Source: a virus (lineage: Duplodnaviria > Caudoviricetes). Taken from it: DNA of 64,000 nt. Positions within the stretch are counted from its first letter, which is position 1; each line of letters opens with the position of its first letter. A program made the translations under genes and the position numbers. Positions 287 through 41,876 of the stretch are shown here, piece by piece. The notes under the pieces were generated by a model that was not told the origin of the DNA, made no database searches, and worked only from the letters and a program-made list of their open reading frames with translations. The stretch lies in the IMG/VR virus record IMGVR_UViG_3300000101_000005, one strand, 5' to 3'.

Positions 287-1363
287 TTATTCAGTTGGTT
301 GTTCTTCGTAAACTTCCTCATCGACTACTTCGACGGGAGTCGATACTACAGGTGTATTTATGATATCATCCATAATTATCTGTAGTTTATCTCCAGTCCA
401 CTGTTTCCGATATTCTAACATAACTTCGCCAGTCGATGGACTTGTATACTCAAGTCTATTACCTGACTTTTTAAGATATCCTTTTGCTTCGAATAACTCA
501 ATCAATCCACTATGCGGATCCATGCCTGTTTCATATGGTATTTCAACTTGCACACTTTCAAACGGTTTATTGTAACGTGTTTTCATTACTTTACACGCCG
601 CTCTAATACCATGTACTTGTGAAGTTTTATTACCGTCTGCATCTACTTTAAGTTTAAGTTTCTTAATAGCTACAACAATACTAGAAGCATATACAAACCC
701 TTGTCCACCGCTGATCTTATCGTCTGGATCAAACATATCTTGTGATGCATATGTGTGGTTAGTACATACCATACCTACGTTATAACTACCAATCATGTTA
801 ACTGTGTTACGAACAAGTGCAGTCAATGCCTTAGGCTTACGACCCATATCACCTTTCATATCACCTTTTTGGAACTGGTCAACGTCTGTAGGTGTTAGTA
901 ACATACCTAACGAATCAATTACAAATAATACTTTAGGACGTTCTTCTTCTGCCATATCACGATATTCTTTCATAAATTCTGATACTGTTCTAGCAACATC
1001 ATCAATCATGCTCATGTTAAGTTTAAGAAGTTTTTCTTCTGAAGTATCTACGTCAAGTGCTTGTAGCCACGCTTCGTCAAGTGCGTTCTCTGAGTCAACT
1101 AATACTACAAAGATGCCTTGTTCCTGTGCAGCCTTTACAATATTTGCTGAACAGAAGTAACTCTTACCACTACCTGATTCACCTGCAAACACCGTTACCT
1201 TACCAAGAGGAACACCTTTATTAAAGTCGCCACTTACAAGATAGTTTAGTGCAAAGTTTCCTGTGCTGACCCAATCAGTTGGATCATTGAAGCCAATACC
1301 AAGGCCGTCAATGCTCTTAGTGATTGTCTTTCTGAATTTACTTATGTCAAATGCTTTTGCCAT
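287..1363 (-). CDS. uvsX: RecA-family recombinase (T4 UvsX-like)
   Basis: Walker A GESGSGKS, Walker B-like VLFVIDSLG, DSENALD, the NHTY motif and SGGQGFVYASS; 358 aa; next to gp32. Confidence 0.95.
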   Translation of the reverse strand: MAKAFDISKFRKTITKSIDGLGIGFNDPTDWVSTGNFALNYLVSGDFNKGVPLGKVTVFAGESGSGKSYFCSANIVKAAQEQGIFVVLVDSENALDEAWLQALDVDTSEEKLLKLNMSMIDDVARTVSEFMKEYRDMAEEERPKVLFVIDSLGMLLTPTDVDQFQKGDMKGDMGRKPKALTALVRNTVNMIGSYNVGMVCTNHTYASQDMFDPDDKISGGQGFVYASSIVVAIKKLKLKVDADGNKTSQVHGIRAACKVMKTRYNKPFESVQVEIPYETGMDPHSGLIELFEAKGYLKKSGNRLEYTSPSTGEVMLEYRKQWTGDKLQIIMDDIINTPVVSTPVEVVDEEVYEEQPTE

Positions 1364-1455: not shown

Positions 1456-2469
1456 TTAACTAGCGTTTCTGCTTCTAATCATTGCAAGAATATCTTGCGC
1501 TCTATTAGAACCATCGCCTTCACTTGCCGCAGCCGCTGGTGCTGTTGCAGTTGCCGCCGCTGGAGCCGCTTCTGCTACTGGTGCTGCCGGAGCCGCTTCA
1601 GGTGCAGGAGTTGCTGCTGGTGCTGGTGTTGCTGGTGTTGATGGAGTATATGCCTTGTTAGGATCTCCAGTACGTGACGCCATACCTGCTGGCTTAAAGT
1701 ACTGACCCCAACGGTCCATATCATATGCCTCACCGTCTACTGACGCTTCGAACATCTCTTTCATAACCTTCAATGCAACTTCATCGGGTTTCTTTGGAAG
1801 GAAATCTGACATGTTGTAAAGACCATGCGTTTCGATCGCTGCCTTTTCAGTATCACTTAATGCACGTTCTTTACGTGACCAAGATGATGTAGAATAGTCT
1901 GCATAGCCACCTTTAGAAGTTTTCTTAACTCTAAAGTCAACGCCACGCATATAGTCTGTTGGCAGTTCTTCAAGTTCAGGATCCATTAATGCACCTTTAA
2001 TGATCTGGAAGATCTGTGGTCCAATAATAAATCTACGGATTGGGTTTTCCGGAGAACTTTCTTCGTTTAACGGGTCTTCAGTAACAAACCCTTGGAATAC
2101 ATATGAACGTTTTTTCCAATACTTACGTCCCATATCTTCTAAAGATTTATCTTTAAACCATGGTCGAACTTCTGTTAAGATCGGACATGGTGTTCCGTCG
2201 TTATACATTTCCATACATGGAACTTGTACAATTACCTGACGTGAGTCAGTGTCGCCTTTTACTCCAGCAAACGGAAGTTTAATCATTGCACGTTCTGCCC
2301 AAAAGAACGTATTAGATTGATCGCTGTCAGGTAAGAAACGAATTACTGCTTCTTTGCCTTCTTGCATATTCCAATGTGGGTAAATTGCGTTGTCTCCACC
2401 GGAAGAATTTCCAGTGTTACGATTGTTGGACTCTTGTAGTTTAGCCCTTATTTCTGCGAGTGATGCCAT
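1456..2469 (-). CDS. gp32: Single-stranded DNA-binding protein (T4 gp32-like)
   Basis: N-terminal LAEIRAKL, AVIRFLP, CPIL, YWKKRSY, GVDFRVKKTSKGGYADYSTS; Ala/Pro-rich linker; strong GGAGG RBS. Confidence 0.9.
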   Translation of the reverse strand: MASLAEIRAKLQESNNRNTGNSSGGDNAIYPHWNMQEGKEAVIRFLPDSDQSNTFFWAERAMIKLPFAGVKGDTDSRQVIVQVPCMEMYNDGTPCPILTEVRPWFKDKSLEDMGRKYWKKRSYVFQGFVTEDPLNEESSPENPIRRFIIGPQIFQIIKGALMDPELEELPTDYMRGVDFRVKKTSKGGYADYSTSSWSRKERALSDTEKAAIETHGLYNMSDFLPKKPDEVALKVMKEMFEASVDGEAYDMDRWGQYFKPAGMASRTGDPNKAYTPSTPATPAPAATPAPEAAPAAPVAEAAPAAATATAPAAAASEGDGSNRAQDILAMIRSRNAS

Positions 2470-2526: not shown

Positions 2527-2555
2527 ATTATATGCTCTTTTATTTAGCCCGTCAA
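2527..2555 (-). promoter_or_regulatory. Sigma70-type promoter for gp32, with a late-type CTAAATA motif inside its spacer
   Basis: Minus strand reads TTGACG, 17 nt, TATAAT (-35 at 2550-2555, -10 at 2527-2532). CTAAATA lies at 2541-2547. Confidence 0.8.
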
Positions 2556-2589: not shown

Positions 2590-2618
2590 AAAAAGAAAGG
2601 AGACCGCAGCCTCCTTCC
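2590..2618 (-). terminator. Intrinsic terminator after pqqA
   Basis: Minus strand GGAAGGAG-GCTGCGGT-CTCCTTTC followed by TTTTT, about 15 nt after the pqqA stop. Confidence 0.75.
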
Positions 2619-2632
2619 GTAAAACTTGTACG

Positions 2633-2704
2633 TTACTTGTTCATTACGTACATTGTAACTTCAAAACCAAAACGCATTTCTGTGTATGAAGGTTTAGTCC
2701 ACAT
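2633..2704 (-). CDS. pqqA: Pyrroloquinoline quinone (PQQ) precursor peptide PqqA, MWTKPSYTEMRFGFEVTMYVMNK
   Basis: Translated by hand: 23 codons plus TAA, with an AAGGAG RBS 7 nt upstream. It has the PqqA signature MW-x-KP...R-x-GFEVT-x-Y, including the cross-linked Glu-x3-Tyr (EVTMY). It is below the size cut-off of the ORF track. Confidence 0.93.
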   Translation of the reverse strand: MWTKPSYTEMRFGFEVTMYVMNK

Positions 2705-2783
2705 TGTCATTCTCCTTTAGTCTTAGGTTGAAACATGTAAACAGTTCCTAGGAGAGCTAAAAGCAAGTCCTAGTTGAGTTACG

Positions 2784-3008
2784 TTAAAGTGCCTTGTGCA
2801 ATTGAGCAACTAGCTTTGCTTTAGTCAGCCTTCTATCTAATTCAATGCCGTTATCTCTGCCTAATTCTTCTAACTTAACCTTTGTCATTTTTGATAACTC
2901 AGCTTTAGTTACTTTCTTAGCTTTTGCTGGGGCCTTTTCTTTCACTTCGTCCTTTAGTACCAAAGGTTCTACTGGTGAAGTGAACAGCTTTTTAATCCAG
3001 TTAAACAT
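2784..3008 (-). CDS. Small basic protein with a C-terminal Rho-N/HeH-like helical motif
   Basis: LSKMTKVKLEELGRDNGIELDRRLTKAKLVAQL resembles helix-extended-helix nucleic-acid-binding modules; GGAG RBS; late-type TTAAATA at 3031-3037. Confidence 0.55.
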   Translation of the reverse strand: MFNWIKKLFTSPVEPLVLKDEVKEKAPAKAKKVTKAELSKMTKVKLEELGRDNGIELDRRLTKAKLVAQLHKAL

Positions 3009-3042
3009 ATTCTTCTCCGTTAATGAGTATTATTTAAGTCTT

Positions 3043-5424
3043 TTAGTAAGCGCCAGCTAAGGTTTTGATTCTTTCGAGTTCTTCGAGTTCTTCTGCCCCT
3101 TGCTCTTGTGCCGGTGCCATTCGTTCTACCATCTTACGAGCAACTTGTCCTGCATGTTCGCCGAACTTCTTGTCTACCATAGTAGCAACGCCTTCTGGAC
3201 CTTTTGGAAATGTGCCACTATTTTTATCGTACATACTTACAATAAATTGTGCTACTTCGTTAATATCATATGACTTACCGTCTACTTTGAATTCTTTTTT
3301 GCCTGCTTTGATTGCTTTGTCTCTCTCACCTGAGAACTTATTTCCTTCGCCAAAATCTGGCTCATCTTGTTTTTCAATATGATTGCCTTCGTCATCAAAG
3401 TCTGTGTCAACCATATCAATTGCAAACATAGCATCAGCTGCTTCATACTTGCCTACTTTAATAGCAGCTTTAACTTTGTCTTTTGGCATTGTTAACTTTT
3501 GATCTTCATCTGTAAAGTCACCTAAAATTTCTTCAGCACCAATCAACGCATCACTTACTCTACCTTCTTGTTGCGTTCCTTCGTGTTGTTTATGATCTGC
3601 ATTATCGTACATTTCTTGTGCGTCCTCCTGACAAGCTGCCATTAACTCGTCCATGTCTTGCATTTCAAGATCTATGTCAGGGTCAAAACCTAATTTACTG
3701 TTACCATCCATTTGGCAGTCTAGTGATATTGATTTAGGATCAACTATGATGTTTGCTGGACCATCTTCGTTTTCAATTTTTGCTTTATACGATACAGTGC
3801 AAGGTGTCATTTCGCCATCATCGCCTGTTCCATCCCATTCAAACTCGCCTTCGAACTCGTCTGGCATAAAGCCTTCCATTGGTGGCTCAGATTGATCAGC
3901 ACTTACTGCTGGTTCATCTGCCATATCACCAAAGTCTAATGATTCTAATTGCTCAGGTGCATTTTCTTCAACCCATGCTTTAACTAATGGGCGAGCATCT
4001 CCGTTAGGATCTTCTTTTGCCTTCATTTTAATATCGTTAAACAGTCTGTTGTCTTCGATAATACCTTTTAAACTTTGAATAGCATTTGTGCCATCTACGC
4101 CTACTGGAAAGTCTTGGTTTACTAATTCATTTAGACTTGCAACTGCCTCTTTAATTTCTTCGTCGCTACCTGTTGTAAGAGGTGAATCTTCACCTAGTGC
4201 CATTGCCCAATTTTCAAATGCTGCAAACGGATCACTTGCTTCGTCCATATCATGTATGCCATTACCATTGTTATCAACCCAATGACTACCATTTTCATCG
4301 TGTGAGTCATGCTCACAATCAGTTGTAGGTTTGTGCATTACATCATCACAATCTTTACAGTGATATTTGTCTGATTCGTTTTTTGTCATTTCGACTATGT
4401 CGTCATAGCCTACAATTTCATCTTCTTTCATTAGTCTATATAGTACTGGAAATACTGATGTTAAATCTTCTTTGAAATTTCTAATAGTGAATTGATCTTT
4501 AAACTGTTCCATTACATCATCTGGTACTTCCATTGCCTCTGGTGTCTGGAAACCTTCTACGTATGATTCATAGTGAGGTTGTTTAGCTATTTTTGCAATT
4601 CTTTCTCTTAAACTATCAAGCTGGCCTTTGCTACGTTCAACAACTGAATTTGTGTCGGAGTTCATTAAGTCGTTACGTACAACATAGCCTGTGAAACTTT
4701 TTAATTGTGCAATTTCTTCACTCATTTTAATAATGCTTTCACCAATTGCATCGTATGGAGCACCACCATTTGCAACGTGTCTTTGCATAGCTCTTGCGCC
4801 TGCTAAGTGAATAAAAGGATATTTAAATCTTTCACCTTGTGAGTTTTCAACAAATAAAGCAGCAATATTTCTTGATCTATCACCTGGCTTCATTTCTGTA
4901 TCATCAGCAAGTGTTTTACTATGCTTAATGATTAATCTTGTGTCTTCCAGTTTTTGGAAGCTCTGTTTTTTAGTCCCGTATAAGGTGCTCTCGTTCATTT
5001 TATTCTCTCCGACTGGTTTTACTATAGTATCACTATCCGCTTGTGGGTTTGAGTATTGACTCAGGAATGCATAATCCCTTTGGTCTAGATTGTCTTTAGC
5101 AATGTCTCTAGTATCAAATGCTAGTAGTCGACGCTTACTAAACTTTCTTAATTCTTTTAGAAATCCGTACCAATTGTCTTTTTGTGGATCGTCCATGCCT
5201 TCAGTAATACCATTTGAAAAGTATACTTTCATTGAATTTGGTTCAGCAAGGCTAATACTCACGTGTCCAATATTCTTATCGCCTTCATTATAATCAAAGT
5301 CAAAGAATCTGGCTTGCTCCGGGTTGATAGTAATTGACCCAGCGTCATCTCCTAATTTTAAACCTTTAAATCTACTTCTAATTTTATAGAAGAGATCGGT
5401 TGCTATGTTGTTAGTTGCGTCCAT
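3043..5424 (-). CDS. Large acidic hypothetical protein, possibly head-internal or prohead-core
   Basis: The ORF track starts at TTG 5439, but ATG 5424 (MDATNN) follows ATAAATA-N5 and is the preferred start. The N-terminal half looks globular; the acidic C-terminal half is modular, with KAGKKEFKVDGKSY and a terminal LERIKTLAG. Confidence 0.6.
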   Translation of the reverse strand: MDATNNIATDLFYKIRSRFKGLKLGDDAGSITINPEQARFFDFDYNEGDKNIGHVSISLAEPNSMKVYFSNGITEGMDDPQKDNWYGFLKELRKFSKRRLLAFDTRDIAKDNLDQRDYAFLSQYSNPQADSDTIVKPVGENKMNESTLYGTKKQSFQKLEDTRLIIKHSKTLADDTEMKPGDRSRNIAALFVENSQGERFKYPFIHLAGARAMQRHVANGGAPYDAIGESIIKMSEEIAQLKSFTGYVVRNDLMNSDTNSVVERSKGQLDSLRERIAKIAKQPHYESYVEGFQTPEAMEVPDDVMEQFKDQFTIRNFKEDLTSVFPVLYRLMKEDEIVGYDDIVEMTKNESDKYHCKDCDDVMHKPTTDCEHDSHDENGSHWVDNNGNGIHDMDEASDPFAAFENWAMALGEDSPLTTGSDEEIKEAVASLNELVNQDFPVGVDGTNAIQSLKGIIEDNRLFNDIKMKAKEDPNGDARPLVKAWVEENAPEQLESLDFGDMADEPAVSADQSEPPMEGFMPDEFEGEFEWDGTGDDGEMTPCTVSYKAKIENEDGPANIIVDPKSISLDCQMDGNSKLGFDPDIDLEMQDMDELMAACQEDAQEMYDNADHKQHEGTQQEGRVSDALIGAEEILGDFTDEDQKLTMPKDKVKAAIKVGKYEAADAMFAIDMVDTDFDDEGNHIEKQDEPDFGEGNKFSGERDKAIKAGKKEFKVDGKSYDINEVAQFIVSMYDKNSGTFPKGPEGVATMVDKKFGEHAGQVARKMVERMAPAQEQGAEELEELERIKTLAGAY

Positions 5425-5435
5425 ATAAGTATTTA

Positions 5436-7025
5436 TCAAAATCCTGTACTTACGAAGATCGGCATTGGGAACTGATCTTCTGTCATTCTTTCTGTCATTT
5501 TGTCGTATATTTTAGGATCCCAGTCAGATAATACGTTGGCCATACGTACAATTAATAATGTTGCAGCCACTAAATCGTCATGTTCGCCTGTTTTTGCACC
5601 GTACCCAACACCGTGTGCTACGAATGTTTTTAGCTCTGATATAAGCGGTTTACTGTGTATTTTCATCTTATTTTTTTCTAATAAATTTTTAAATCCGCTA
5701 CATGCAGTAATCTTTGTTTTGTGTGTTGTGTTAAATCCTTTTCTATAACGTCTAACATGTCCTTTTCTCATAGGCTCACTTAAGAATAATCCGCTAAAGT
5801 TTTCTTCACCTATGTCTGCAATAACAACTAGTGCTGCTTCACCAATTGTATTATTCTCTACACTATAATATATTGTAGGAGTTGCATTTCCACCTGTTGC
5901 ACATTCTGTTTGAATGTACTGTAAAATTTCTCTTAATGTTCTTACTTGCTGTTGTATTGGAGTTAAGTTATGTCTCCATTCTCCTACTTGTTCCATACTA
6001 GGCATTTCAAATATTTGAATAGCACCATAGTCGCCGCCTGTACCTAAACTTGGATCCATACTTACTAGGTATGTTGCTTTAGGATTAATTTTTTTATACC
6101 AACGTGTTTGTCCAGTATTCATAATAGGCTCTGAGCCTTCTAGTTCTGCTAACTTAACACTATTAATAAGTGTTTCATCAAAGATTAAGAATTCACAATC
6201 AAACTCACGTCTAAAACGTTCGTCACCGATCTTTGCTTTTTCTTCTGCTGCCCAGGCATCATCTCTATCTGGATGATCAACCCATGGAGCAAAATAAGGA
6301 AAGAATCCGTTAGTACCTACGCCCATATCGTTACCGTGATCGTCAAACTTTTTATTTGCTTCTGTCCAAATCATAGCAAACTGATCTTCATCTGAGTTTG
6401 GTGTACTTGTAACAATAGCTTTACCACCTGTTGACAGTGTAGGAGAAAGTGCAGTCCAAAACTCTTTGGCTTTCTCTGGCGGTTGCACAAACGCAAACTC
6501 ATCACAGTATATTAATGAAAGTGATTTACCACGTCCAGTATCTTCTGTTGTTGTAGTTGCTTGTATTCTACTACCGTTATCAAACTCAATCGTGTTTCTG
6601 TTATATGTATAGATACCAGCACGAACAAAGTCAGGCAATGTTTCATATCCATATCTAAATCTATTCATGATGTCTTGCGCACCAGTATATTTGTGTGCAG
6701 CAATTAGCACCTGCGATTCAGGTGTAAACATTGTATACCATAATAGATATCCAGCAGCACAGGTCGTCTTACCCATCTGTCTAGGTAACATAGCAACACA
6801 ATATCTATTTTCTGCGTATGCTTGAATTAGTTCTCGTTGAAATCCATAAGGCTCAAACTTCATTGAACCTTTTACAGGGTGTTGAATGGTTAGAAAGTTT
6901 TCACAAAAGTATAATGGGCCCGTGATAGGATCCATACAAGCCTCTAAGTGCTTGACTTCTTCTAATGTAAATTTATTTTTGCTGTGGGCCTTCTTTATCT
7001 GAACGCCATCTAAACTCTTTGCCAT
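5436..7025 (-). CDS. gp17: Terminase large subunit (T4 gp17-like)
   Basis: ATPase motifs PRQMGKTT, GRGKS, LIYCDEFAF and STPN; nuclease motifs SMDPSLG, VENN and HDDLV. Confidence 0.95.
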   Translation of the reverse strand: MAKSLDGVQIKKAHSKNKFTLEEVKHLEACMDPITGPLYFCENFLTIQHPVKGSMKFEPYGFQRELIQAYAENRYCVAMLPRQMGKTTCAAGYLLWYTMFTPESQVLIAAHKYTGAQDIMNRFRYGYETLPDFVRAGIYTYNRNTIEFDNGSRIQATTTTEDTGRGKSLSLIYCDEFAFVQPPEKAKEFWTALSPTLSTGGKAIVTSTPNSDEDQFAMIWTEANKKFDDHGNDMGVGTNGFFPYFAPWVDHPDRDDAWAAEEKAKIGDERFRREFDCEFLIFDETLINSVKLAELEGSEPIMNTGQTRWYKKINPKATYLVSMDPSLGTGGDYGAIQIFEMPSMEQVGEWRHNLTPIQQQVRTLREILQYIQTECATGGNATPTIYYSVENNTIGEAALVVIADIGEENFSGLFLSEPMRKGHVRRYRKGFNTTHKTKITACSGFKNLLEKNKMKIHSKPLISELKTFVAHGVGYGAKTGEHDDLVAATLLIVRMANVLSDWDPKIYDKMTERMTEDQFPMPIFVSTGF

Positions 7026-7039
7026 ACTAGTATTTACTC

Positions 7040-7066
7040 AAAAAAATAGCACCCGAAGGTGCTATT
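7040..7066 (-). terminator. Intrinsic terminator with a cUUCGg tetraloop
   Basis: AATAGCACC-TTCG-GGTGCTATT followed by a T run on the minus strand. Confidence 0.9.
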
Positions 7067-7085
7067 GAATCTTGTGATAGCAGTA

Positions 7086-7520
7086 TTATGCTAATTCTAG
7101 CGTAGTTTTTACTGTACAAGTTACACCAGTAAAGTCAATTTGTGCTGGTGTAGCACCTGATAAGTCAGTTAATGCAATGATGTCATCTTCAATTTGTTCT
7201 ACAAGTGTTTCTGCACCTGCTTGATCATAATCTAATGAGTCGTTGCTTTGTTCAACTACAAGTGCAAACTTTTGGTTTGTACCATATAGTGCGCCACGAA
7301 TAACAACAGTACAATATTTTTCAACAATACGCATAATGCTTTCAATTGCTAGTCCGCTGCCTGTTTGAGCGTTTACTGCTGCACCACATGCAATTTCAAA
7401 TACTGTTAAGTTTTTGTTGCCGTTGTAATGTATAGCTGTCATATCAGCATATGGTTTTCTGTTTTCAGCAACCTTTACTGAACTACCGCCGCCGATTGTT
7501 GATTGTGTTAAATCTGCCAT
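7086..7520 (-). CDS. Hypothetical protein, likely virion-associated
   Basis: 144-aa ORF coupled to the upstream gene by a TAATG overlap and followed by the terminator; no family recognised. Confidence 0.7.
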   Translation of the reverse strand: MADLTQSTIGGGSSVKVAENRKPYADMTAIHYNGNKNLTVFEIACGAAVNAQTGSGLAIESIMRIVEKYCTVVIRGALYGTNQKFALVVEQSNDSLDYDQAGAETLVEQIEDDIIALTDLSGATPAQIDFTGVTCTVKTTLELA

Positions 7521-8182
7521 TACTTCTCTCCCTTAGCTTCTGCTAAACGTTGTGTAAGTTCAGCGTGTATTTGAGCTCTTAGGTCCTCGCCCTCTTTTAC
7601 TTTTCTCATAGGATTGTCACCGTCAGCTACTTTAGGATGTGTACCCTTAGGACGGTTCATTCCACCTGCTAATTTGTTTTGCATATAGTCAATGTCTCTG
7701 TGGTCTTCATCAGGCTCATTAGCATATGCTTCTTCTTTATCTTTGTCTTCTTCGTCGTGGTCGTCCATGTCGTGGTCGCCATCGTCGTCTTTGTCTAAAC
7801 CTTTGATCATATCGTGATCTGCATCATGGTCATCTTTGTCCATGCCCATATCCATATCACCGCCTGGCTTATCATCATTATCGTCATCAAAGTCTGGAAT
7901 CAATTTATTGATTGGCTTTGGCATAGCAATAGTCATGTCTGGCATGTCTGGCATGTCTGGTTTTTCTGGTTGGTTAATCATGTCTGGATTAACTTTAGTC
8001 ATTAATTTTAATACGTCATCAATAGCATCGCCTTCAGCACTGATATTAACATTCATTCTTGCTTTATCTTTTTGCTCTGGTGTTGACATTGGAGCCTGTG
8101 GCATAGGAACTGGCATCTCTGTAACAGGGGCGTCAGTTGTGTCAAGCTCACGCATTTTTTGCATAAGTTCATTAAAGTTCAT
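7520..8182 (-). CDS. Acidic low-complexity hypothetical protein (Asp/Met/His-rich)
   Basis: 220 aa; MPDMPDM micro-repeat and a DKDDDGDHDMDD loop; TAATG overlaps with both neighbours. Confidence 0.7.
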   Translation of the reverse strand: MNFNELMQKMRELDTTDAPVTEMPVPMPQAPMSTPEQKDKARMNVNISAEGDAIDDVLKLMTKVNPDMINQPEKPDMPDMPDMTIAMPKPINKLIPDFDDDNDDKPGGDMDMGMDKDDHDADHDMIKGLDKDDDGDHDMDDHDEEDKDKEEAYANEPDEDHRDIDYMQNKLAGGMNRPKGTHPKVADGDNPMRKVKEGEDLRAQIHAELTQRLAEAKGEK

Positions 8183-8763
8183 TATTTACTCCCTACAGGG
8201 CTGTTAACACCCGCTTTGTCGATTTTAATCTTAGGAACGTCTGCAAATACGTCTGCTTTTAATTTATCGTGTCCTAATTCCTTCTTACGTTCTTTAGAAG
8301 TTTTTTGTAAGTCTTTCAAAAATGATTTGTTAAAATCATTACCAAAGTAATCTTTGTGTTTGATCTTACCTGCTTCTTTATATTCGTTGTCATGTAATAG
8401 TGCGCCTTCTCTTTTGTCATCATTAATTTGATACTCTTCAGTTGGGCTGGCACTGTTTCTTACTTTACAACGATCTGCAACACATCCGCAATCTTCACAA
8501 CAGCTCTTAAGCACTTCTTGTGGAGTAATAGGATAGCTTGTTACAAGATTAAATGTAGTTACTTCCATATTGTTCAGTTCTGGAAAATCCATAGGAACTT
8601 CAGTAACTGGTGTTTTTGACATCTCTTCGCAAGTTACTACTTCCCTAGAAGCCATACATGATTTTAGTCTATCGCAAAAGCCTTCAGGAACTTCGCCTGC
8701 CACTTTTACGTTGAAGCTGTATACTTTTTTGCTTTCAGTCAAATATTCATTGAACGTTTTCAT
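8182..8763 (-). CDS. Hypothetical protein with a T4 capsid-targeting-like N-terminus
   Basis: It begins MKTFNEYLTE, resembling the T4 internal-protein sequence MKTYQEFIAE, and is preceded by ATAAATA-N5-ATG. Confidence 0.6.
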   Translation of the reverse strand: MKTFNEYLTESKKVYSFNVKVAGEVPEGFCDRLKSCMASREVVTCEEMSKTPVTEVPMDFPELNNMEVTTFNLVTSYPITPQEVLKSCCEDCGCVADRCKVRNSASPTEEYQINDDKREGALLHDNEYKEAGKIKHKDYFGNDFNKSFLKDLQKTSKERKKELGHDKLKADVFADVPKIKIDKAGVNSPVGSK

Positions 8764-8771
8764 ATTAGTAT

Positions 8772-9263
8772 TTATTCCTTTCCGCTTAATTTCTTCATTA
8801 GTTCATTGCGATCTAGCATGATATAGCCTGATCCGTCTACTAATTCGTTGGGATCTTCACCTGAATCTTGATCAAGTTTCAGCTTTCTCATTTGTAAATC
8901 TACAGCTTTTAACTTCTTATCAATTTTAGCAGACTTAGCATCTACTGCATTTTTAAGCATACTGCCAGCAACTTCAAAAATACGTCCACTATAACGTACT
9001 TCTACATTCATACCCAAATCCATTAGATCATCATATGCTTTCTCAGCCTTATCAGCTAAGTGATCTAGATCCGTTTCACCTAGTGTATCCAATTCTCTTA
9101 CTGCTGGTAATTCTTTAGTAATGTTTTGGATTGCTTGATAACTTTGATCTACGCTTTTTATTTCAGCTTCCATTTCTTCAGCCTTTATTACAGAAGCTTC
9201 AACCTCTTTAGGTTCTTCTTTTGCTTCTTCCATATTAAAAAGTTCTTCTAATTTCTTTGTCAT
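8772..9263 (-). CDS. Probable terminase small subunit (gp16-like)
   Basis: Helical core DDLMDLGMNVEVRYSGRIFEVAGSMLKNAVDA resembles the RAYEVAGQLIK segment of T4-like small terminases; 163 aa; lies upstream of terL. Confidence 0.55.
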   Translation of the reverse strand: MTKKLEELFNMEEAKEEPKEVEASVIKAEEMEAEIKSVDQSYQAIQNITKELPAVRELDTLGETDLDHLADKAEKAYDDLMDLGMNVEVRYSGRIFEVAGSMLKNAVDAKSAKIDKKLKAVDLQMRKLKLDQDSGEDPNELVDGSGYIMLDRNELMKKLSGKE

Positions 9264-9271
9264 ACTTTTAC

Positions 9272-9712
9272 TTATCTTCGTTTAGGTCCAGTGTGAAAAA
9301 TATCTTCTTCAGTTACTACCCTAAAACGTAGTCCTTTTTGTTTGCACCATGCGGTAGCTGCTTCCCATTTTGCCATATTGAGCAAGTATTGTTCTTGATT
9401 GTATCTACTTTTACCAACGCTTTCTCTAAATGATTGATTCTTAGGTTTAACTTCTATTACTTCTGCATGTTGCTTACCTTTTTTATCTGCATAAACAATA
9501 AAGAAGTCAGGTACATAAATTGTGTGTTTACCTGTTAATGGGTTTCTGTAAGGTATTTGAATACTTTCACTTGCCCACTTTGCAACACCTTGATGTTCAT
9601 CTAACATCTTCATAAAAACAGTTTCCCAACTTGAACGTGCCATTGGTGTTTTAGTACCAACATACTTGCTGGGGTTTTTCATTTCAAATCTGCCTTGAGC
9701 AAACTTCGGCAT
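9272..9712 (-). CDS. gp4: Head completion nuclease (T4 gp4-like, TnsA PD-(D/E)xK fold)
   Basis: RSSWE..FM, WASE.IQIPY, YVPDF, IEVKP and KWEAA motifs; probable start is ATG 9712 (MPKFAQG). Confidence 0.85.
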   Translation of the reverse strand: MPKFAQGRFEMKNPSKYVGTKTPMARSSWETVFMKMLDEHQGVAKWASESIQIPYRNPLTGKHTIYVPDFFIVYADKKGKQHAEVIEVKPKNQSFRESVGKSRYNQEQYLLNMAKWEAATAWCKQKGLRFRVVTEEDIFHTGPKRR

Positions 9713-9713
9713 A

Positions 9714-10079
9714 TTAAGCACTCACATTACGTTGTTTTGAGACATCTTCTACCGGTGTACGGTATCCTAGTGTTGATGTTGCCGGTCTATTATTATTTAG
9801 AACTTCAGCAACTAATGCACTAATTTGTAATTGTTCTAGCCCAGTAATATCGTCTAAAACTTTTGATATAGGAAGGTTTTCTAACTTTGCTTGTTTTAAT
9901 AATGACGTTGCAACAACTTCTGCTGCACTATTATCAAATCCTTTATCTTTAAAAAATACAATTGCTGTGTCATAGTCAACAGCATTATACTCTAATGGTG
10001 ATTTACCATATTGATCAAAGTAAAGTCTAGTACGTGCTGCACTATCTTGTATTTCCTTTGGTGGTAAATTAGTAGGCAT
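9714..10079 (-). CDS. Hypothetical protein
   Basis: The ORF track starts at 10109; ATG 10079 (MPTNLP) has a GGAGG RBS and avoids the overlap with the upstream gene. Confidence 0.7.
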   Translation of the reverse strand: MPTNLPPKEIQDSAARTRLYFDQYGKSPLEYNAVDYDTAIVFFKDKGFDNSAAEVVATSLLKQAKLENLPISKVLDDITGLEQLQISALVAEVLNNNRPATSTLGYRTPVEDVSKQRNVSA

Positions 10080-10080
10080 A

Positions 10081-11196
10081 TTATGTTCCTCCACCTTGAT
10101 TACCAGCAAACGATGAGCTATTACTTATATTGCTTGTAGACTTTGGTCGTGCCTTAGTAGTTCCGTTGGCTGCATCATTCTTTGGAAAGAATATACCTGC
10201 TGCACCCGATATTGTATTTGAAATTTGTTGTATGCCGCCCGGACTTGTTAAAATATTAACACCTTCGTTTAGAATAGAATCTTTACTTAATCCTCTAATA
10301 TTTTTATATGTATTAACTGCTGCAATAGCTGTACCTAAAAATGATTTAGGACTTTCAAATGCACTGCCGTTACCAATAGAACCAAATATAGATTCAAGTC
10401 CATCAAGTACACCACCTTCTCCTAGTAGTAATCCTGTTCCGCCACCTGCAACTCCTAATGGAGATGAAACTGTATCATAATGTAATGTTGCAAAACCCTT
10501 AGGTGAACCTTGACTTATTGTTCCTGCTGTATACTGTACTGCTTCGTATTGTAATGACATTGAACTTTCAGCAGTTTCTGACCCTGCTGCATAATCCATT
10601 CCACCTGCTGTCCATTGTTGAATCTTTGGATTGACTAGTGTGTATCCAACAAAGCGTCTACGTCCCATTGTGTAGATAGTAACAGATTTAAAAAAGTCCG
10701 CAGTTGATCCGTTATCAAAACCAAATGCATAGTTGTTAGTATTACCGTTTCTATATTGATCTCTATCATATGCTTGTGTAGGATTATTCCTATCAGCAAT
10801 ATAATAACCATAGTACAAAGCCCACAGAGCACTTATAACACCTTGGTTATCATCATGCATAGTAAACTGTACAGGGTCGTATTGAATTCTTTTGTAAACG
10901 TTATGCTTTTTATTATACTGGTTTAGTGTATCCATTTGGAAACTAAACTTAGGCAAGTCTACACCTTTAACTAGCAGTCCTGTTTCTTCAGCATGTTTGG
11001 ATTTAAAGTTAGCAGCCTTAACAGCCATAGGATCCATTTCAAACCTAACATAATAATTAAATTTAGTCTTAGGTGCAAGACGCATTGTATTATCAATGAA
11101 CAGTCTTGTGGCATGGGTATAGTTACCCATAATACCTTTAGGTTGAGTAAGTCCAGTTGCAAAATCGCTGAGAAATCTTGTGAATTTGTTTGCCAT
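10081..11196 (-). CDS. Tail tube/baseplate junction protein (gp54/gp19-like fold)
   Basis: LVKGVDLPKF...LNQYNKK...IQYDPVQFTMHDD is a tube-fold signature; the gene is directly downstream of the tail tube gene. Confidence 0.65.
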   Translation of the reverse strand: MANKFTRFLSDFATGLTQPKGIMGNYTHATRLFIDNTMRLAPKTKFNYYVRFEMDPMAVKAANFKSKHAEETGLLVKGVDLPKFSFQMDTLNQYNKKHNVYKRIQYDPVQFTMHDDNQGVISALWALYYGYYIADRNNPTQAYDRDQYRNGNTNNYAFGFDNGSTADFFKSVTIYTMGRRRFVGYTLVNPKIQQWTAGGMDYAAGSETAESSMSLQYEAVQYTAGTISQGSPKGFATLHYDTVSSPLGVAGGGTGLLLGEGGVLDGLESIFGSIGNGSAFESPKSFLGTAIAAVNTYKNIRGLSKDSILNEGVNILTSPGGIQQISNTISGAAGIFFPKNDAANGTTKARPKSTSNISNSSSFAGNQGGGT

Positions 11197-11212
11197 ACTA
11201 TTATTTAGCCAT

Positions 11213-11241
11213 AAAAAAAGCCCGGAAAATAATCCGAGCTT
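11213..11241 (-). terminator. Intrinsic terminator after the tail tube gene
   Basis: AGCTCGGA-TTATTT-TCCGGGCT followed by TTTTTT on the minus strand. Confidence 0.8.
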
Positions 11242-11264
11242 CTTCTATTTTATTTAAAAAGTTA

Positions 11265-11906
11265 TTAGCCTTGAGCGCCTGAAGAACCTGTAGTAGATTC
11301 ACCAATTGTTCTTCCAACGTTTGCGCCAATTCCAACGCCAACGCCTTGCTCACCTGCGCCCCACTGTACCATGTTATCAAAACGTACAGTTAGTGCAACT
11401 TGCATAGCTTCGTTAGTAGCGTAGTTAGCGTCACCGTAGTCTACGTTAGTTAGGAAACAACCATACATGTTTGCTGTTTCTAATACGCTTACTCCGTTTT
11501 CACTAGTACCGTTACCACCGTCTAGTACTTCAATTTTTGTTGTAAACTTGTAGTCAATACCTGATCTAGCAGATGCTTGTTCGACAAAGTCAAACTGCTT
11601 CTGGACCTGTTGGCCGACTAGCTTTTGTACAAAGCCACTAGCATCATCACGTAAGTTCAATGTTAGTGTTTCGAAAGTATACTTACCTGCTAAGAATACC
11701 TTTGAGTTGTACACGTCTAACTGCATTTCTTCAAAACCTACTTTTGGTCTTGAAACATCTACAACTTGTTTAGTAAGTTCTGTTGCAGCACTAACTCCAA
11801 ATCCTAAAAGTGTCACCCTAAAGCGATATTTTAGTTTAGGCATCAAGAGCACTTGGTTGCCTGCGTCTGTTGGTACTCCAAAGTTGTTAAGTGATGTAAT
11901 AGGCAT
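11265..11906 (-). CDS. gp19: Tail tube protein (gp19-like)
   Basis: PKLKYRFRV, VDVSRPKVGF, AGKYTFETLTLNLRDD, YGCF...VDYG and LTVRFDN; coupled to the sheath gene. Confidence 0.85.
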   Translation of the reverse strand: MPITSLNNFGVPTDAGNQVLLMPKLKYRFRVTLLGFGVSAATELTKQVVDVSRPKVGFEEMQLDVYNSKVFLAGKYTFETLTLNLRDDASGFVQKLVGQQVQKQFDFVEQASARSGIDYKFTTKIEVLDGGNGTSENGVSVLETANMYGCFLTNVDYGDANYATNEAMQVALTVRFDNMVQWGAGEQGVGVGIGANVGRTIGESTTGSSGAQG

Positions 11907-14900
11907 TATATTTCTCCTGTGTTCTTGACACGCAATGGAATGTAAATAAACTCAATCGCCTTAATCGGTTCGATAGCAATATCAACATAAAGTTCATTCC
12001 TGTCAATTCTTGCTGGCGTGTTGTTAGTTTCATCACACACAACTGCAAAGTCGTATAAAGCTCTTAAGCCTACAAGCTCGAGTAATAATGACTCAACTGC
12101 TTGTTTAACTTCGTCCCTTGTGATCTTATCATTTGGCTCAAAGATATAAGGTCTTGCAAGTTTGTTAAGTTGTGATCTTAAATATACAACTAAACGTGCT
12201 ACGTTAATTCTATCTAAAGCACTTGCATTTCTTGCTCTAGTTTTTTGTCCGTAGTTTACAAGTCCTACACCGTTAAAGAATGTAATTGGATTAATTTTTA
12301 GTCCATACAACGTATCTCTTTGACCTTCGTTCAATGCAACTGTTTGGAATTCACCTGTTGCTGCATCAATATAACCTACTGATGTAGCGTTGCTAATTCC
12401 ACCACGTCTTGTTCCTGCTGGAGCAAACCATGGAAACGATACTTGGTCGCTTAATGCTATAGTTCTCATCATCATGTGTGATGCTGGAACAACAGCGTTT
12501 GCGCCACCTAAGTCAGTTGTAAATCCATTTGGATAAAACGCACCTAAGTATTCATCGTATGTTACAAGTCCGTCATCGTTGTTATCAACTACCAACGCAC
12601 TGTTTGAACCATATGCTAACAATGAAGTTGCATCACTTGCTAATCTTAAAGGTGTATCACCAATAACAAATGCTGTTAAGCCTCTGTCAATGTTTAAGTT
12701 AACAAGGTTGCTCATTGTTTCTGTGTATCCAGGACATGAAATTAAGTTAAAGTTTCTTGTTTCTTCATCTCTAATTTCTGAACTTGTATCAATTGCTGAT
12801 TTAAGTGCCTGTGTTACTACCATACGCTGTGCATGTCTACCAAATGATCCGCTACCATCTTCTTGGTTGCCTGATTGTGTAGACCATCTGTCTGTAGCAT
12901 AACTTGTCATCGCTTCGTCGCCGTTGCGAGTGTTGTCAGCTGTTAAATCAATGTAATTGTTGTTGTACTTTTTAACGTTACCGCCACTTCTACGTAAGTT
13001 CCATAGCAACATACCTTTTGGATATAGTGCAGGATCTGGAGCATCTGGATCTAAGTAATCGTTAGTTAGTAAGTCTTTAATAGTTGCTGCTGTGTTACCA
13101 GTAGAACCTGCTAGACCATAACGTGCATCTGCAAACAATATACCGTCTTCTGAAGTTTGATCTGTTTTATCAACAAGTACCCATGCTAGGTTATTACCGT
13201 CCCATCTGTAAATTGTTGGAAAGTCTTCTAAACTTGCAGTTGAAATCCAAAGGTCTCCGTCTACTAGTGCAGTACCATCGCTTTGTCCTGTTGTTGCATT
13301 TGGCTCAGTTGCTGAAACAATTGGGCCTAATGGTGAACAGTTAGCGTATCCTGAACTGTAATTTTGGTAACCTTTCCAAGTAGTACCATTATGAATCATA
13401 ATGTCAACATCACTAAACTCTGGGTTGTACCAAAGTTGTCCGTCTGCTGGTTCTGCTAATGGAGCATTGCTTGAAGCTGCAAAGTTGTCTGCTGCTAAAG
13501 GCTTCCAGTTAGATACAACATAGTTTTCACTTGCGCCTGTTGGTGCTGCGTAAAAGTTTGCTGTTCCTAATCCTGTGTTAATGCTGTATGCAGTATAAGC
13601 ACTTCCTATTGGAGTATTAGTTCCATCAGTAATTCTAAACTCTCCGCCTAACTTGTGGAAAATTTCTACTGCGTTTGAAGTTGTTACTGCTGCTTCAATG
13701 TTAGTAAAACCTGCACTGTTAATAGCACCTGCTATTAATGATGCGTCATTAGCATTACCTGCTGCTGTAAAGCTCACGCTTACTCCAGCGTTTAATGCTG
13801 CTGATGTTTTAATACTTTCTGCAATTGTAAATGTGTTTCCACCTACTGTAAATGTACTTGCGTCTACTACTGCTGAAGTAATTTTAGTAACTCCTGTTGC
13901 AGCTCTTCTAAACGCTCTAAACGAAGCAGTCATTGGTGTTGTATCGTAACCGCTATTTTCTTCTGCGTTAGTTTGTACATAGATGCTATCAGTTGGAATG
14001 TTAACTCCGCCACCTGCTTTATCTAATGCATAAACTGCAGATGAGTTGTTAGCATACAATGGTGCAGTATATGCTACCCATGAAAGAGTCGCTGCTGACC
14101 ATTTACTTGCTCTCCAACGTGCGCCGTTGTTTGGCTCAGTTGTTTTAACCCATACACTTCCTGTTGGACGTGGTGTTGTGTCACCAGTTTTAAATTCTGG
14201 AACATTAGTGTGTGCATCAATGTGTAGCTGTGGACCATAGTAAGTTGCTTTTGAAATACCTAACTCACTAAAAGTAATCTGTGGGCTACTTAAACCGTCA
14301 TCAATAATAATAGCATTTGACTTGGACGAATCACCAATTCCATCATCTAAGCTACCATCTGAATAAAGATAAAGTCTACCGCTTACGTTTCTTGCAACAA
14401 TACCTTGTGTTTCTGTAATAGCACCGTTAATTGCAACAACCAAGTCATCTAATGTGCCACTTACTGTAAAGTTTGTTCCGTTAATACTGAAGTTACCTGC
14501 AGTTGCTGAAAAAGTATCGCCAACAATTGTTGGATGGCTTGCTGACCAATCATTGCTTCCTACTTTAACCCAATTACCTTGTGTAACTGTTGATCCGTTA
14601 CCTGCGGACTTGTACCACATAGTTGCATTTTCTTTACTTGCACTAAATGATCCGCTACCATCAACTGTTTCAAATACTACTGCGTAATCGCCAATAGCAC
14701 CAACTGATGTTTTAGGTGCGCCGTTATCAATTTTTGAAATATCTGCATCGGTTAACACGATAGGTGTTTTAGCAGCAAATTTTTGACCACCTGTTGTGGT
14801 TACTGCTGCGCCATTCCACTCTTGGATACCAAAAGCAGTTGACCCGCTGTTTATCCACCACTTGCCATCTGCTGGATTCGCTCCCGGAGCAGTTGATGAA

Positions 14901-15262
14901 CCTTGTAGTTCGTCTAAGTCAACATCTGCACGTACAATGAAAGCTGAGTTTGAAACGCCTAATAATGAATATGCTGAAAGCAATCCATATTCGTTTAATT
15001 CGCTTCCATGTATTGGAGTGTTGCTCGCTGTCTTTTTGAATGTTGGTACACCAAAAAGATCTACTAATTCTTTCTGTGAGGTAACTTTATATGCTTTACC
15101 TGCGTTAGCTTTTAGCGTTCCAGCTGCTGTAGCTGTGCCCGCTGCGTTTAATTTGTCTTGCGATGAAGCGATAACAATAAGAGGAGTAGTACCAGGCTCT
15201 GCTGGGGTATAAAACGACTCGTCTATTACTGTTACTTCTACGCCTGGTGATGTTAATGCCAT
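11906..15262 (-). CDS. gp18: Contractile tail sheath protein (gp18-like) with large insertions, about 1118 aa
   Basis: N-terminal MALTSPGVEVTVIDES (ATG 15262, AGGAG RBS); C-terminal WFAPAGTRRG, INPI, GQKT, ALDRINVARL, FEPND and IEFIYIP. Confidence 0.92.
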   Translation of the reverse strand: MALTSPGVEVTVIDESFYTPAEPGTTPLIVIASSQDKLNAAGTATAAGTLKANAGKAYKVTSQKELVDLFGVPTFKKTASNTPIHGSELNEYGLLSAYSLLGVSNSAFIVRADVDLDELQGSSTAPGANPADGKWWINSGSTAFGIQEWNGAAVTTTGGQKFAAKTPIVLTDADISKIDNGAPKTSVGAIGDYAVVFETVDGSGSFSASKENATMWYKSAGNGSTVTQGNWVKVGSNDWSASHPTIVGDTFSATAGNFSINGTNFTVSGTLDDLVVAINGAITETQGIVARNVSGRLYLYSDGSLDDGIGDSSKSNAIIIDDGLSSPQITFSELGISKATYYGPQLHIDAHTNVPEFKTGDTTPRPTGSVWVKTTEPNNGARWRASKWSAATLSWVAYTAPLYANNSSAVYALDKAGGGVNIPTDSIYVQTNAEENSGYDTTPMTASFRAFRRAATGVTKITSAVVDASTFTVGGNTFTIAESIKTSAALNAGVSVSFTAAGNANDASLIAGAINSAGFTNIEAAVTTSNAVEIFHKLGGEFRITDGTNTPIGSAYTAYSINTGLGTANFYAAPTGASENYVVSNWKPLAADNFAASSNAPLAEPADGQLWYNPEFSDVDIMIHNGTTWKGYQNYSSGYANCSPLGPIVSATEPNATTGQSDGTALVDGDLWISTASLEDFPTIYRWDGNNLAWVLVDKTDQTSEDGILFADARYGLAGSTGNTAATIKDLLTNDYLDPDAPDPALYPKGMLLWNLRRSGGNVKKYNNNYIDLTADNTRNGDEAMTSYATDRWSTQSGNQEDGSGSFGRHAQRMVVTQALKSAIDTSSEIRDEETRNFNLISCPGYTETMSNLVNLNIDRGLTAFVIGDTPLRLASDATSLLAYGSNSALVVDNNDDGLVTYDEYLGAFYPNGFTTDLGGANAVVPASHMMMRTIALSDQVSFPWFAPAGTRRGGISNATSVGYIDAATGEFQTVALNEGQRDTLYGLKINPITFFNGVGLVNYGQKTRARNASALDRINVARLVVYLRSQLNKLARPYIFEPNDKITRDEVKQAVESLLLELVGLRALYDFAVVCDETNNTPARIDRNELYVDIAIEPIKAIEFIYIPLRVKNTGEI

Positions 15263-15394
15263 CTTTTTTATCTCCTGGTAATATTTTCGTATCAGTCTAT
15301 TACGTAAACTTGTTGCAATTGTATTTAGCACTTTATATAAAATTAGCCTGGTTTAACCAGTCATTAAAGGGGTCCAAAAGGTGTAAATACATGT

Positions 15395-15730
15395 ATGAGA
15401 CCTCTTTGTAAGTGCGGATTACGGCCACGTGCTGTTAACTATAAGAAAGGTAAGCGTACCTATTACAGAAGCCTATGTGAAGTATGTAATAATCACGGGC
15501 AGTATACAGGTGTACCTAGATGGGCTCGTGCTGGCTATAAACAGAAAGCTTCATGTGATAAATGCGGATTCAAATCACCTCATCCAGAAGTATTTAGAGT
15601 ATTACATTTAGATGGAAATTTAGATAACTGTAGACACAGCAATTTAAAAACTGTTTGTGCTAATTGTATATCTGTGTTATCTAAAGAAGGTATTAAGTGG
15701 AAACAGGGTGACTTAACTGCTGACTACTAG
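15395..15730 (+). CDS. Zn-ribbon HNH endonuclease-like protein
   Basis: CKCG, CEVC and CDKC pairs plus HLDGNLDNCRHSNLKTVCANC; preceded by GTAAATA-N5-ATG. Confidence 0.75.
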   Translation: MRPLCKCGLRPRAVNYKKGKRTYYRSLCEVCNNHGQYTGVPRWARAGYKQKASCDKCGFKSPHPEVFRVLHLDGNLDNCRHSNLKTVCANCISVLSKEGIKWKQGDLTADY

Positions 15731-16333
15731 TGACTTAACTTCTTTATATAAGTCCTCAATACCCATATCATTATGAATATGGTGGTCGAATTTAGTACCA
15801 ACCCAAGCCCATTCTGAAGCATGTATGTTCTGTATCTTTAGTTCATTGATTGCTACATTGCTACCTGAATTTGCATCAAGTGCTACATCATACCACTTAG
15901 GTAAACGTCCACGTTGTACCATAATCATCTTGCCTTGTTGATTCTTAATTGCTTTTACTTCATTAGGAAAACGTACATCACTTACAATGATGTCATCTTT
16001 AGAGTTACGTATTTTGTTCTCTAAACTAGCAATCCAAATATCATCATGGAAACTTTTACGACAAACTTCAGTACCCCAATATTGTAGTACCCAGCGTGGT
16101 GTTAGTGTTGGCATTCCTAATCTTTCTGCCCACCAATGATCTACTTCTTCACGCCATTCACGTGCTTCTTTTGTTCTACCTTCAAGTAAAGTTCTGTCCC
16201 AACCAAATACTGATGCAACTGCATCTTTCAATGTGTCAGCAAAACTTTCTCTTCTAAATTCATGGAAGTTAACAAGGTAATCAGCAACAGTGTCTTTGCC
16301 GCTACCAATAAAACCACATACACCAATAATCAC
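15713..16333 (-). CDS. Deoxynucleoside monophosphate kinase (T4 gp1-like)
   Basis: P-loop GFIGSGKDT, SFADTLKD, PRWVLQYWGTEVCR and VSDVRFPNE; GTG start with an AGGAG RBS. Confidence 0.9.
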   Translation of the reverse strand: MIIGVCGFIGSGKDTVADYLVNFHEFRRESFADTLKDAVASVFGWDRTLLEGRTKEAREWREEVDHWWAERLGMPTLTPRWVLQYWGTEVCRKSFHDDIWIASLENKIRNSKDDIIVSDVRFPNEVKAIKNQQGKMIMVQRGRLPKWYDVALDANSGSNVAINELKIQNIHASEWAWVGTKFDHHIHNDMGIEDLYKEVKSLVVSS

Positions 16334-16352
16334 AAATAATTCTCCTAGTTAA

Positions 16353-16391
16353 TATACTGTACAGTATACTAGAATTAATTCATAATGTCAA
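16353..16391 (-). promoter_or_regulatory. Sigma70-type promoter for the dNMP kinase gene, overlapped by a perfect 16-bp palindrome
   Basis: TTGACA (16386-16391), 17 nt, TATACT (16363-16368); TATACTGTACAGTATA at 16353-16368 is self-complementary. Confidence 0.8.
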
Positions 16392-16396
16392 GTATT

Positions 16397-17457: not shown

Positions 17458-17498
17458 ATAAGTATTTATGCCTTTAGCAACTTTAGGTAAATACTTAT
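17458..17498. promoter_or_regulatory. Back-to-back late-type promoters for the divergent gp13 and gp14 genes
   Basis: ATAAGTATTTA (17458-17468) and TAAATACTTAT (17488-17498) are perfect inverted copies. Confidence 0.7.
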
Positions 17499-17501
17499 AC
17501 A

Positions 17502-20377: not shown

Positions 20378-20385
20378 GTATTTTA

Positions 20386-22647: not shown

Positions 22648-22669
22648 AATATTTGTTCCTCTACTGTAT

Positions 22670-32735: not shown

Positions 32736-32755
32736 AGATATAGGAGTTATACAAT

Positions 32756-41819: not shown

Positions 41820-41876
41820 TTTTAATCCTTTGGTAATATATACTACTATTATTTATCTGCATACATAGAGCCATCA

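Follow-up and report, generated by a model that had tools for sequence, protein, structure and literature searches.

Why would a phage carry a gene for PqqA, the ribosomal precursor of the redox cofactor PQQ, and what would it gain from the peptide? The question is raised by a reading frame of 23 codons on the minus strand of a 64,000-nucleotide viral stretch (IMG/VR record IMGVR_UViG_3300000101_000005; the whole stretch is called the window throughout), which a preliminary description, made from the letters alone, had read as a phage-encoded pqqA. PqqA is consumed 1:1 per PQQ made, being cross-linked by PqqD/PqqE and then passing through proteolysis, PqqB and PqqC; PQQ itself is a cofactor and is not consumed by catalysis. 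Methanol dehydrogenase needs PQQ, and OM43 and related Methylophilaceae are major methanol consumers of coastal seas and lakes.

The concept of a viral PqqA was already published in 2020 (PMC7678222), when Coutinho et al. (Microbiome 8:163) found PqqA in the Lake Baikal population VP_266, an uncultured, T4-like, predicted Methylophilaceae phage, and proposed that viral PqqA is an auxiliary metabolic gene aiding methanol oxidation. The value of the present analysis therefore lies in breadth, anatomy and testability, and not in a new principle. What is new is the anatomy of the pqqA cassette, its natural plus/minus variants, a shared terminator, a covarying leader hairpin, and a tally of unannotated or mis-annotated pqqA in all nine cultured Methylophilales phage records found.

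Results

The reading frame encodes a full-length PqqA

Translation of the minus-strand frame from ATG 2704 to TAA 2633-2635 gives MWTKPSYTEMRFGFEVTMYVMNK, a full-length PqqA, exactly the ORF that the preliminary description had set out. The profile search that it had called for bears the identification out: the peptide matches Pfam PF08042 with 46 bits (E = 4.5e-12; 19 of 19 profile positions; cut-off 21.1) and the NCBIfam equivalog TIGR02107 with 47 bits (E = 1.5e-12; 21 of 21 positions; cut-off 20), both scores being more than twice the respective cut-off. These matches exclude a chance ORF, and the frame at 2633-2704 is a genuine pqqA. The cross-link motif E-x3-Y, here E15-V-T-M-Y19, is intact within the 23 residues, as expected of a family of ~20-30-residue peptides bearing it, and W2 and P5 form part of the leader portion. 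The neighbourhood typical of PqqA, with pqqB-E close by, is not found in the 64-kb window, and the models do not require it. The AAGGAG ribosome-binding site reported earlier is present at 2712-2717, 7 nt before the ATG. An alternative in-frame ATG at 2710 is the less likely start because AAGGAG is only 1 nt away. The features of the locus are as follows.

2527..2555, minus strand: near-consensus sigma-70 promoter (TTGACG, 17 nt, TATAAT; 11 of 12 matches) for the downstream gp32 gene
2595..2618, minus strand: intrinsic terminator, a 10-bp hairpin followed by a T-run (fold -17.4 kcal/mol, z = -2.5)
2619..2783, minus strand: pqqA cassette of 165 nt (leader, gene and 14 nt), from comparison with pqqA-less sister phages
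2633..2704, minus strand: pqqA, 23 codons plus TAA (translation; PF08042 and TIGR02107, both full length)
2712..2717, minus strand: Shine-Dalgarno sequence AAGGAG, 7 nt 5' of the ATG (from sequence; AGGAG invariant in 19 related cassettes)
2735..2747, minus strand: conserved leader motif GAACTGTTTACAT, with GUUUACAU able to pair with AUGUGGAC (the start codon plus 5 nt)
2748..2773, minus strand: leader hairpin, CTAGGA, 14-nt loop, TCCTAG (covariation among T4-like pqqA cassettes)
2774..2779, minus strand: conserved ACTCAA at the 5' edge of the cassette (CTCAA invariant in 19 cassettes)
2784..3008, minus strand: upstream 74-aa ORF (from the ORF list; its stop codon abuts the cassette)

The gene lies in a marine T4-like myovirus

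The genes around pqqA identify the source as a T4-like myovirus, with UvsX, gp32, TerL and tail sheath all represented.

287..1363, minus strand: UvsX/RecA-type recombinase (PF00154, TIGR02012)
1456..2469, minus strand: gp32-type single-stranded-DNA-binding protein (PF08804, 28 bits; 592 relatives in IMG/VR)
3043..5439, same strand as pqqA: virion structural protein
5436..7025, minus strand: T4-type large terminase (PF03237, 72 bits; PF17289)

Further along on the same strand follow genes for the tail tube, the tail sheath, the gp15 tail-sheath stabiliser and a baseplate-wedge/tail-fibre connector protein. CheckV gives completeness values of 12% at 44 kb and 32% at 114 kb for IMG/VR relatives, from which a genome of about 360 kb, probably that of a jumbo phage, follows. 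Megablast of 8 kb against GenBank phages returned no close relative. The stretch was recovered from marine and seawater metagenomes in 14 studies, and the phage is therefore marine and widespread.

Within the gp32 gene, the segment 1500-1650, which belongs to the C-terminal part of the protein, shows 67-73% identity among relatives otherwise 92-98% identical; it also draws many unrelated RNA contigs (depth ~900 in X19) and is probably a low-complexity, fast-evolving tail.

The cassette is inserted between a stop codon and its terminator

The boundaries of the cassette emerge from sister phages that do without it. Two such IMG/VR contigs match the window on both flanks, L258 at 98% and L259 at 92-93% identity; in place of the cassette each has 24 nt of unrelated filler, which link the stop of the 74-aa ORF to the terminator hairpin. 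The same pqqA-less junction recurs in run X19, with 2614 joined to 2783 and 24 letters between. Since the cassette is missing from L258, L259 and the X19 variant, pqqA is dispensable in nature. It also follows that the terminator, which the preliminary description had taken to be dedicated to pqqA, is not: in near-identical phages lacking pqqA the hairpin stands directly 3' of the 74-aa ORF and ends the transcript of that ORF, which makes it the terminator of the upstream gene, with pqqA inserted before it. The cassette of pqqA and leader thus precisely separates an existing gene's stop codon from its terminator. Each end of the cassette has a copy of TAACGTA, which may represent junction microhomology or chance.

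Four cassette-bearing contigs (L248-L251, of which L249 is colinear with the window) are 93-94% identical to the window overall and 100% identical over the 240 nt from 2595 to 2834, and perfect identity in such a background argues that the unit either was exchanged recently or is strongly constrained as a whole. Of the best 80 gp32 relatives in IMG/VR, 3 have pqqA adjoining gp32. The 74-aa ORF has no Pfam or PHROG match. A sigma-70-like promoter was sought between this ORF and pqqA without success, and no promoter was identified inside the cassette; because the stop codon of the ORF also abuts the cassette, pqqA is probably co-transcribed with it. The promoter at 2527..2555 in turn makes pqqA and gp32 separate units.

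The leader is structured and phage-specific

T4-like phages share one order of elements in the cassette, namely ACTCAA, hairpin, GAWCTGTTTACAT, an A/T-rich spacer, AGGAG and ATG. Across 19 distinct sequences the 6-bp leader helix is paired in 94.7% of cells, and four of its six pairs vary on both sides, with UA, CG and GC found at one position and GC, AU, CG and UA at another. The covariation score is 0.468, as against 0.10 or less in slid controls, and none of 500 shuffles reached it; the helix had not been included in the search pattern by which the cassettes were collected. None of 121 host pqqA upstream regions has the ACTCAA-hairpin-CTGTTTACAT element (0/121), and a host-derived leader is rejected on this ground. 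Possible functions of the hairpin are those of an mRNA stabiliser, a processing signal or a translational control element.

T4-type phage genomes reportedly contain a repeated promoter-plus-stem-loop element, the PeSL said to have been described by Arbiol and co-workers in 2010, which flanks small ORFs. The leader arrangement, ACTCAA included, occurs only once in the 64-kb window, and a mobile regulatory cassette of the PeSL type is rejected because the element is unrepeated there; loose matches to the 3' motif of the leader number 8 in the window, with 6.6 expected, which is chance level. An Rfam search of the leader found nothing, its sole hit being STnc290 on the terminator (23.5 bits, with 60 needed).

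A second helix, between GUUUACAU and AUGUGGAC, is predicted by RNAfold in the window and might hide the start codon. In alignment A3, most rows of which were picked by a pattern including both helix arms, it is paired in 97% of cells, with one-sided changes only. This helix is put forward as no more than a possibility, since the search pattern contained both arms and the coding arm is unable to vary.

Bacterial relatives point to Methylophilaceae

Bacterial relatives were collected from one-genome-per-species genomes with a degenerate DNA pattern for EMRFGFEVTMY, which fixes 11 residues, and at least 120 loci matched. Among the matches listed, 63 of 80 are named to Methylophilaceae genera or to the family (Methylotenera, Methylophilus, Methylobacillus, Methylovorus, Ca. 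Methylopumilus and others), and the remaining 17 comprise 16 named to order or above only and one Acidovorax MAG. The exact VMNK tail occurs at 55 of these 80 listed loci; 49 of the 55 are named Methylophilaceae, and the Acidovorax MAG is the sole VMNK locus, among the matches listed, that is named to another family. Judged by these names, the EMRFGFEVTMYVMNK tail is a Methylophilaceae signature. A methylotroph host of this type had been suggested earlier from the resemblance of the tail, and the suggestion holds up in that Methylophilaceae dominate the bacterial matches (the nearest relatives; 63 of 80 among those listed) and the phage matches, apart from one uncultured freshwater phage and two mislabelled bacterial assemblies, belong to phages of Methylophilales. 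The comparison supports Methylophilaceae, OM43 or another marine member, as the probable host. The combination S6-Y7 within the exact peptide was found in none of 129 host copies.

In these bacteria pqqA is commonly detached from the rest of its pathway. The streamlined genome of Ca. Methylopumilus universalis (1.3 Mb) has three copies, none of which (0/3) is adjacent to the single pqqBCDE; four copies are found in a Methylophilaceae genome of 2.0 Mb and seven in Methylobacillus flagellatus. This agrees with the 3-12 pqqA copies and single pqqBCDE reported for Methylophilaceae genomes by Beck et al. 2014 (PMC4109929). With multiple unlinked copies in the host, PqqA supply in trans is therefore the host's normal state. 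The family makes a large investment in pqqA dosage, and this, like the abundance of pqqA RNA in marine metatranscriptomes, indicates that the supply of substrate is important to the host.

Two observations on bacterial loci may be added. Three Methylophilaceae loci (L052, L060, L028) have two tandem pqqA copies 150-800 bp apart. One locus, L110, is the sole bacterial pqqA locus (1 of 120 among the matches listed) whose neighbours are of the viral-pqqA type (21 ORF segments); it is either a prophage or a phage contig that ended up in a MAG bin.

Lone pqqA genes recur in cultured and uncultured phages

A tblastn search of the peptide against 50,697 GenBank phage records matched 12. Peptide identity is 96% for Venkman, 87% for P19250A and MEP301, 83% for MEP401 and MEP402, and 73% for four Melnitz records, so that a lone pqqA is present in nine of nine cultured Methylophilales phage records found in this way; an uncultured freshwater phage from Manatee Spring has pqqA at 91% identity. 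The two other matches, both labelled 'Acinetobacter phage MD-2021a', were rejected as pieces of bacterial chromosome with pqqBCDE. One locus of this kind (L007, CAKLQF020000010.1), with fur, ppk, pqqBCDE and a dipeptidase gene, is a source of false 'phage pqq operon' matches.

According to the literature as of 2023, Venkman, MEP301 and Melnitz were the sole OM43 phage isolates before MEP401/402, and these methylophage backbones are assigned to distinct viral groups; the accessible publications on cultured methylophages make no mention of pqqA. The pqqA site carries no annotation in Venkman, P19250A, MEP301 and MEP402. Opposite-strand 'hypothetical protein' genes are annotated over it in Melnitz-1 (MZ577095.1, L002; gene 151, at 3961-4069) and in the Manatee Spring phage (MW202481.1, L003; UOF77531.1, at 2067-2195). 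All six copies inspected, from cultured or uncultured phages, have an SD-like motif 6-9 nt 5' of the ATG, and in Venkman and the Manatee Spring phage pqqA is antisense to its neighbours.

The same DNA pattern found at least 120 contigs or loci with pqqA in IMG/VR. Their genomic contexts fall into about eight groups when resolved as Louvain communities over the at least 120 loci; single-linkage clustering merged nearly all of them and was uninformative.

Viral copies are under purifying selection

Among the matches listed, 120 of 120 IMG/VR copies have an intact ORF of the right length, and all 120 have W2 and P5, two residues that the pattern left free. The copies represent 108 distinct DNA sequences, one of which is identical to a host version, and 45 peptide variants, of which seven are common to hosts (both again among the matches listed). 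Since the pattern makes 11 residues conserved by construction, selection was measured on the non-fixed codons only: over the 11 codons that the pattern does not fix, pN/pS from pairwise counts is 0.27 for viral and 0.29 for host copies. The phage pqqA is under purifying selection. Of the variable sites, 10 fall at first, 9 at second and 20 at third codon positions, and this excess at third positions indicates selection on the peptide rather than on the RNA.

The phages appear to carry the substrate only

PqqB-E and XoxF of Acinetobacter and Methylopumilus served as tblastn queries for pathway partners. None was found in the 64-kb window (of a genome of ~360 kb), which agrees with the earlier remark that pqqB-E are missing from it. 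Nor was any found near 120 viral copies among the matches listed (1.5 Mb of viral loci), in the complete 141.6-kb genome of Melnitz or in large related contigs totalling 412 kb, in which generic radical-SAM matches stayed far below the PqqE cut-off; pqqC, pqqE and xoxF were found in no true phage among the 50,697 GenBank records. With no pathway enzymes found, these phages therefore appear to carry the substrate only, and the proposal made at the outset, that the phage supplies just this, fits the searches of the window, the 120 listed viral loci and the 412 kb of related contigs.

In situ, pqqA RNA is very abundant. Marine metatranscriptomes contain contigs that match the pqqA ORF alone at a word depth of 7,000-23,000, compared with 3-20 for the flanking phage genes; because their flanks are unlike the window, these deep contigs are attributed to pqqA of hosts or other phages. 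The locus itself is covered from 2698 to 2853 without mismatch in RNA library X15 (record 7) and from 2609 to 3100 in X17 (record 22), in both cases with DNA carry-over possible, and such contigs give neither level nor strand.

Discussion

The reading that we consider likely is that the ORF is a functional, host-derived pqqA, an auxiliary metabolic gene with which a T4-like and probably jumbo marine phage of Methylophilaceae supplies the stoichiometric substrate of PQQ synthesis. A host-type gene amid gp32, UvsX, TerL, tail sheath and tail tube genes is what one expects of an auxiliary metabolic gene. According to this model, the phage would make the 23-residue precursor peptide during infection, the host PqqD/PqqE would join Glu15 to Tyr19 within it, and PQQ would be completed by host proteases together with PqqB and PqqC. 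Because one peptide is spent per PQQ and the phage brings no enzymes, its contribution would consist in an extra or continued supply of the sole stoichiometric substrate. Such a supply would let XoxF, the PQQ-dependent methanol dehydrogenase of the periplasm, stay loaded as host transcription falls. The gene itself would travel as a small optional cassette made up of a phage-specific structured leader, an SD sequence and the ORF. Judging from the sequences, phage pqqA likely boosts PQQ supply during infection; we infer that the peptide is translated during infection, accepted by the host enzymes and rewarded by a gain in PQQ or energy, and we assume that new PQQ is needed within the course of one infection.

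A genuine coding pqqA could alternatively be a hitch-hiking moron of no real benefit to the phage, repeatedly acquired from short, highly transcribed host copies and later lost, and the presence/absence polymorphism between near-identical phages, the 3-12 dispersed donor copies offered by the hosts and the presence of pqqA at only 3 of the best 80 related gp32 loci would all be in keeping with this. A gene without benefit would, however, hardly show a pN/pS of 0.27, equal to the host level, with 120 of 120 ORFs intact among the matches listed, nor would one expect it in phages of unrelated types and in each of the Methylophilales phage records found. The covarying leader hairpin, which is phage-specific and not copied from hosts, and a cassette that is 100% identical between phages otherwise 93-94% identical also speak against it; we regard simple hitch-hiking as unlikely. 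That same leader, being conserved, structured and phage-specific, together with the possible helix hiding the start codon and the assumed nature of a requirement for new PQQ in a short infection, could instead speak for a role of the peptide or RNA outside precursor supply, such as the titration of host PqqD/PqqE, signalling, or action as a cis- or trans-acting RNA. We hold such a role to be quite improbable, given that all PQQ-forming residues are kept, that the peptides are often identical to host ones, that most substitutions are synonymous and that the distribution of variation over the codon positions (10, 9, 20) marks the peptide, and not the RNA, as the object of selection.

Host genes that are short and highly conserved are classic targets of integration, and several small methylophages have recombinases near pqqA, so one may ask whether the phage copy is an attachment-site remnant matching a host pqqA target. 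The window phage and Melnitz are, however, T4-like lytic myoviruses, and the viral copies are complete ORFs with SD sequences and not gene ends. Moreover, only 1 of the 108 viral DNA versions is identical to a host's (among the matches listed), and an attachment-site origin was rejected because host pqqA loci almost never have phage-like neighbours (1 of 120, among the matches listed); we give this explanation next to no credence.

It is conceivable, though on balance doubtful, that pqqA and its structured leader constitute a self-contained mobile module moving in and out of T4-like marine methylophages, in which the leader would act as a cis-regulatory RNA (5' hairpin plus start-codon helix) timing or tuning PqqA translation, the supply of precursor being a controlled limiting step of host PQQ synthesis.

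The substrate-feeding model finds a close parallel in VP_266, which likewise has pqqA in a T4-like phage of a predicted Methylophilaceae host and for which the same role was proposed. VP_266 is, however, a freshwater population whose representative encodes methanol dehydrogenase, whereas the window phage is marine, and xoxF is seen neither in the window nor in 412 kb of related contigs nor in any GenBank phage; cassette boundaries, the optional nature of the cassette and a structured leader were not described for VP_266 (PMC7678222). The orphan pqqA genes of Methylophilaceae resemble the phage gene in being of the 23-residue type with the EMRFGFEVTMYVMNK tail, in being unlinked to the single pqqBCDE and in their similar constraint, but they have promoter-like upstream regions of their own and lack the phage leader. 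The cultured methylophages (Venkman, P19250A, MEP301, MEP401/402, Melnitz) share with the window phage a lone pqqA with an SD sequence, at 73-96% peptide identity, and no pqqC, pqqE or xoxF is found in their GenBank records; their backbones and the genome positions of pqqA are different. The classic auxiliary metabolic gene is cyanophage psbA, which encodes a structural protein and whose expression and benefit have been demonstrated experimentally. Both genes are phage copies of a fast-turnover or consumed part of the host energy machinery used with host partners; pqqA differs in that it encodes a sacrificial cofactor precursor, known here from sequence.

Two practical consequences can be drawn. 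Because a lone pqqA is present in every cultured methylophage record found, it offers a host-range marker for viromes. Furthermore, natural sister phages with and without the cassette exist, and OM43 is in culture together with Venkman, Melnitz and the MEP phages, which makes the idea directly testable. The recurrence of pqqA suggests that phages have repeatedly chosen to control a step that limits the energy metabolism of methylotrophs.

Other features of the window

An island at 27012-43403, of lower GC (0.34), contains five paralogous tryptophan-halogenase-family flavoenzymes (E from 1e-90 to 1e-105). It also holds ORFs of ~200 aa without assignment, and its set of enzymes is unusual for a phage.

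28206-29690, 29687-31204, 31182-32735, 40203-41819 and 41877-43403: tryptophan-halogenase-family flavoenzymes
27012-27590, 27590-28216 and 34092-34703: 2OG-Fe(II) oxygenases within the island
36483-37202: JmjC/cupin protein within the island

Adjoining the baseplate/tail-fibre connector gene (21019-22647) are genes for an 839-aa protein with a subtilase S8 domain (22670-25189) and a 575-aa protein with an E1_FCCH-like domain (25199-26926). Two giant minus-strand ORFs encode 2606 aa (47479-55299) and 1862 aa (55368-60956). Finally, one cassette-bearing T4-like contig outside the window (L350, IMGVR_UViG_3300023105_003457, 116 kb) is classed by IMG/VR as a 'provirus', which is odd for this type of phage; its host flanks, if real, could identify the host.
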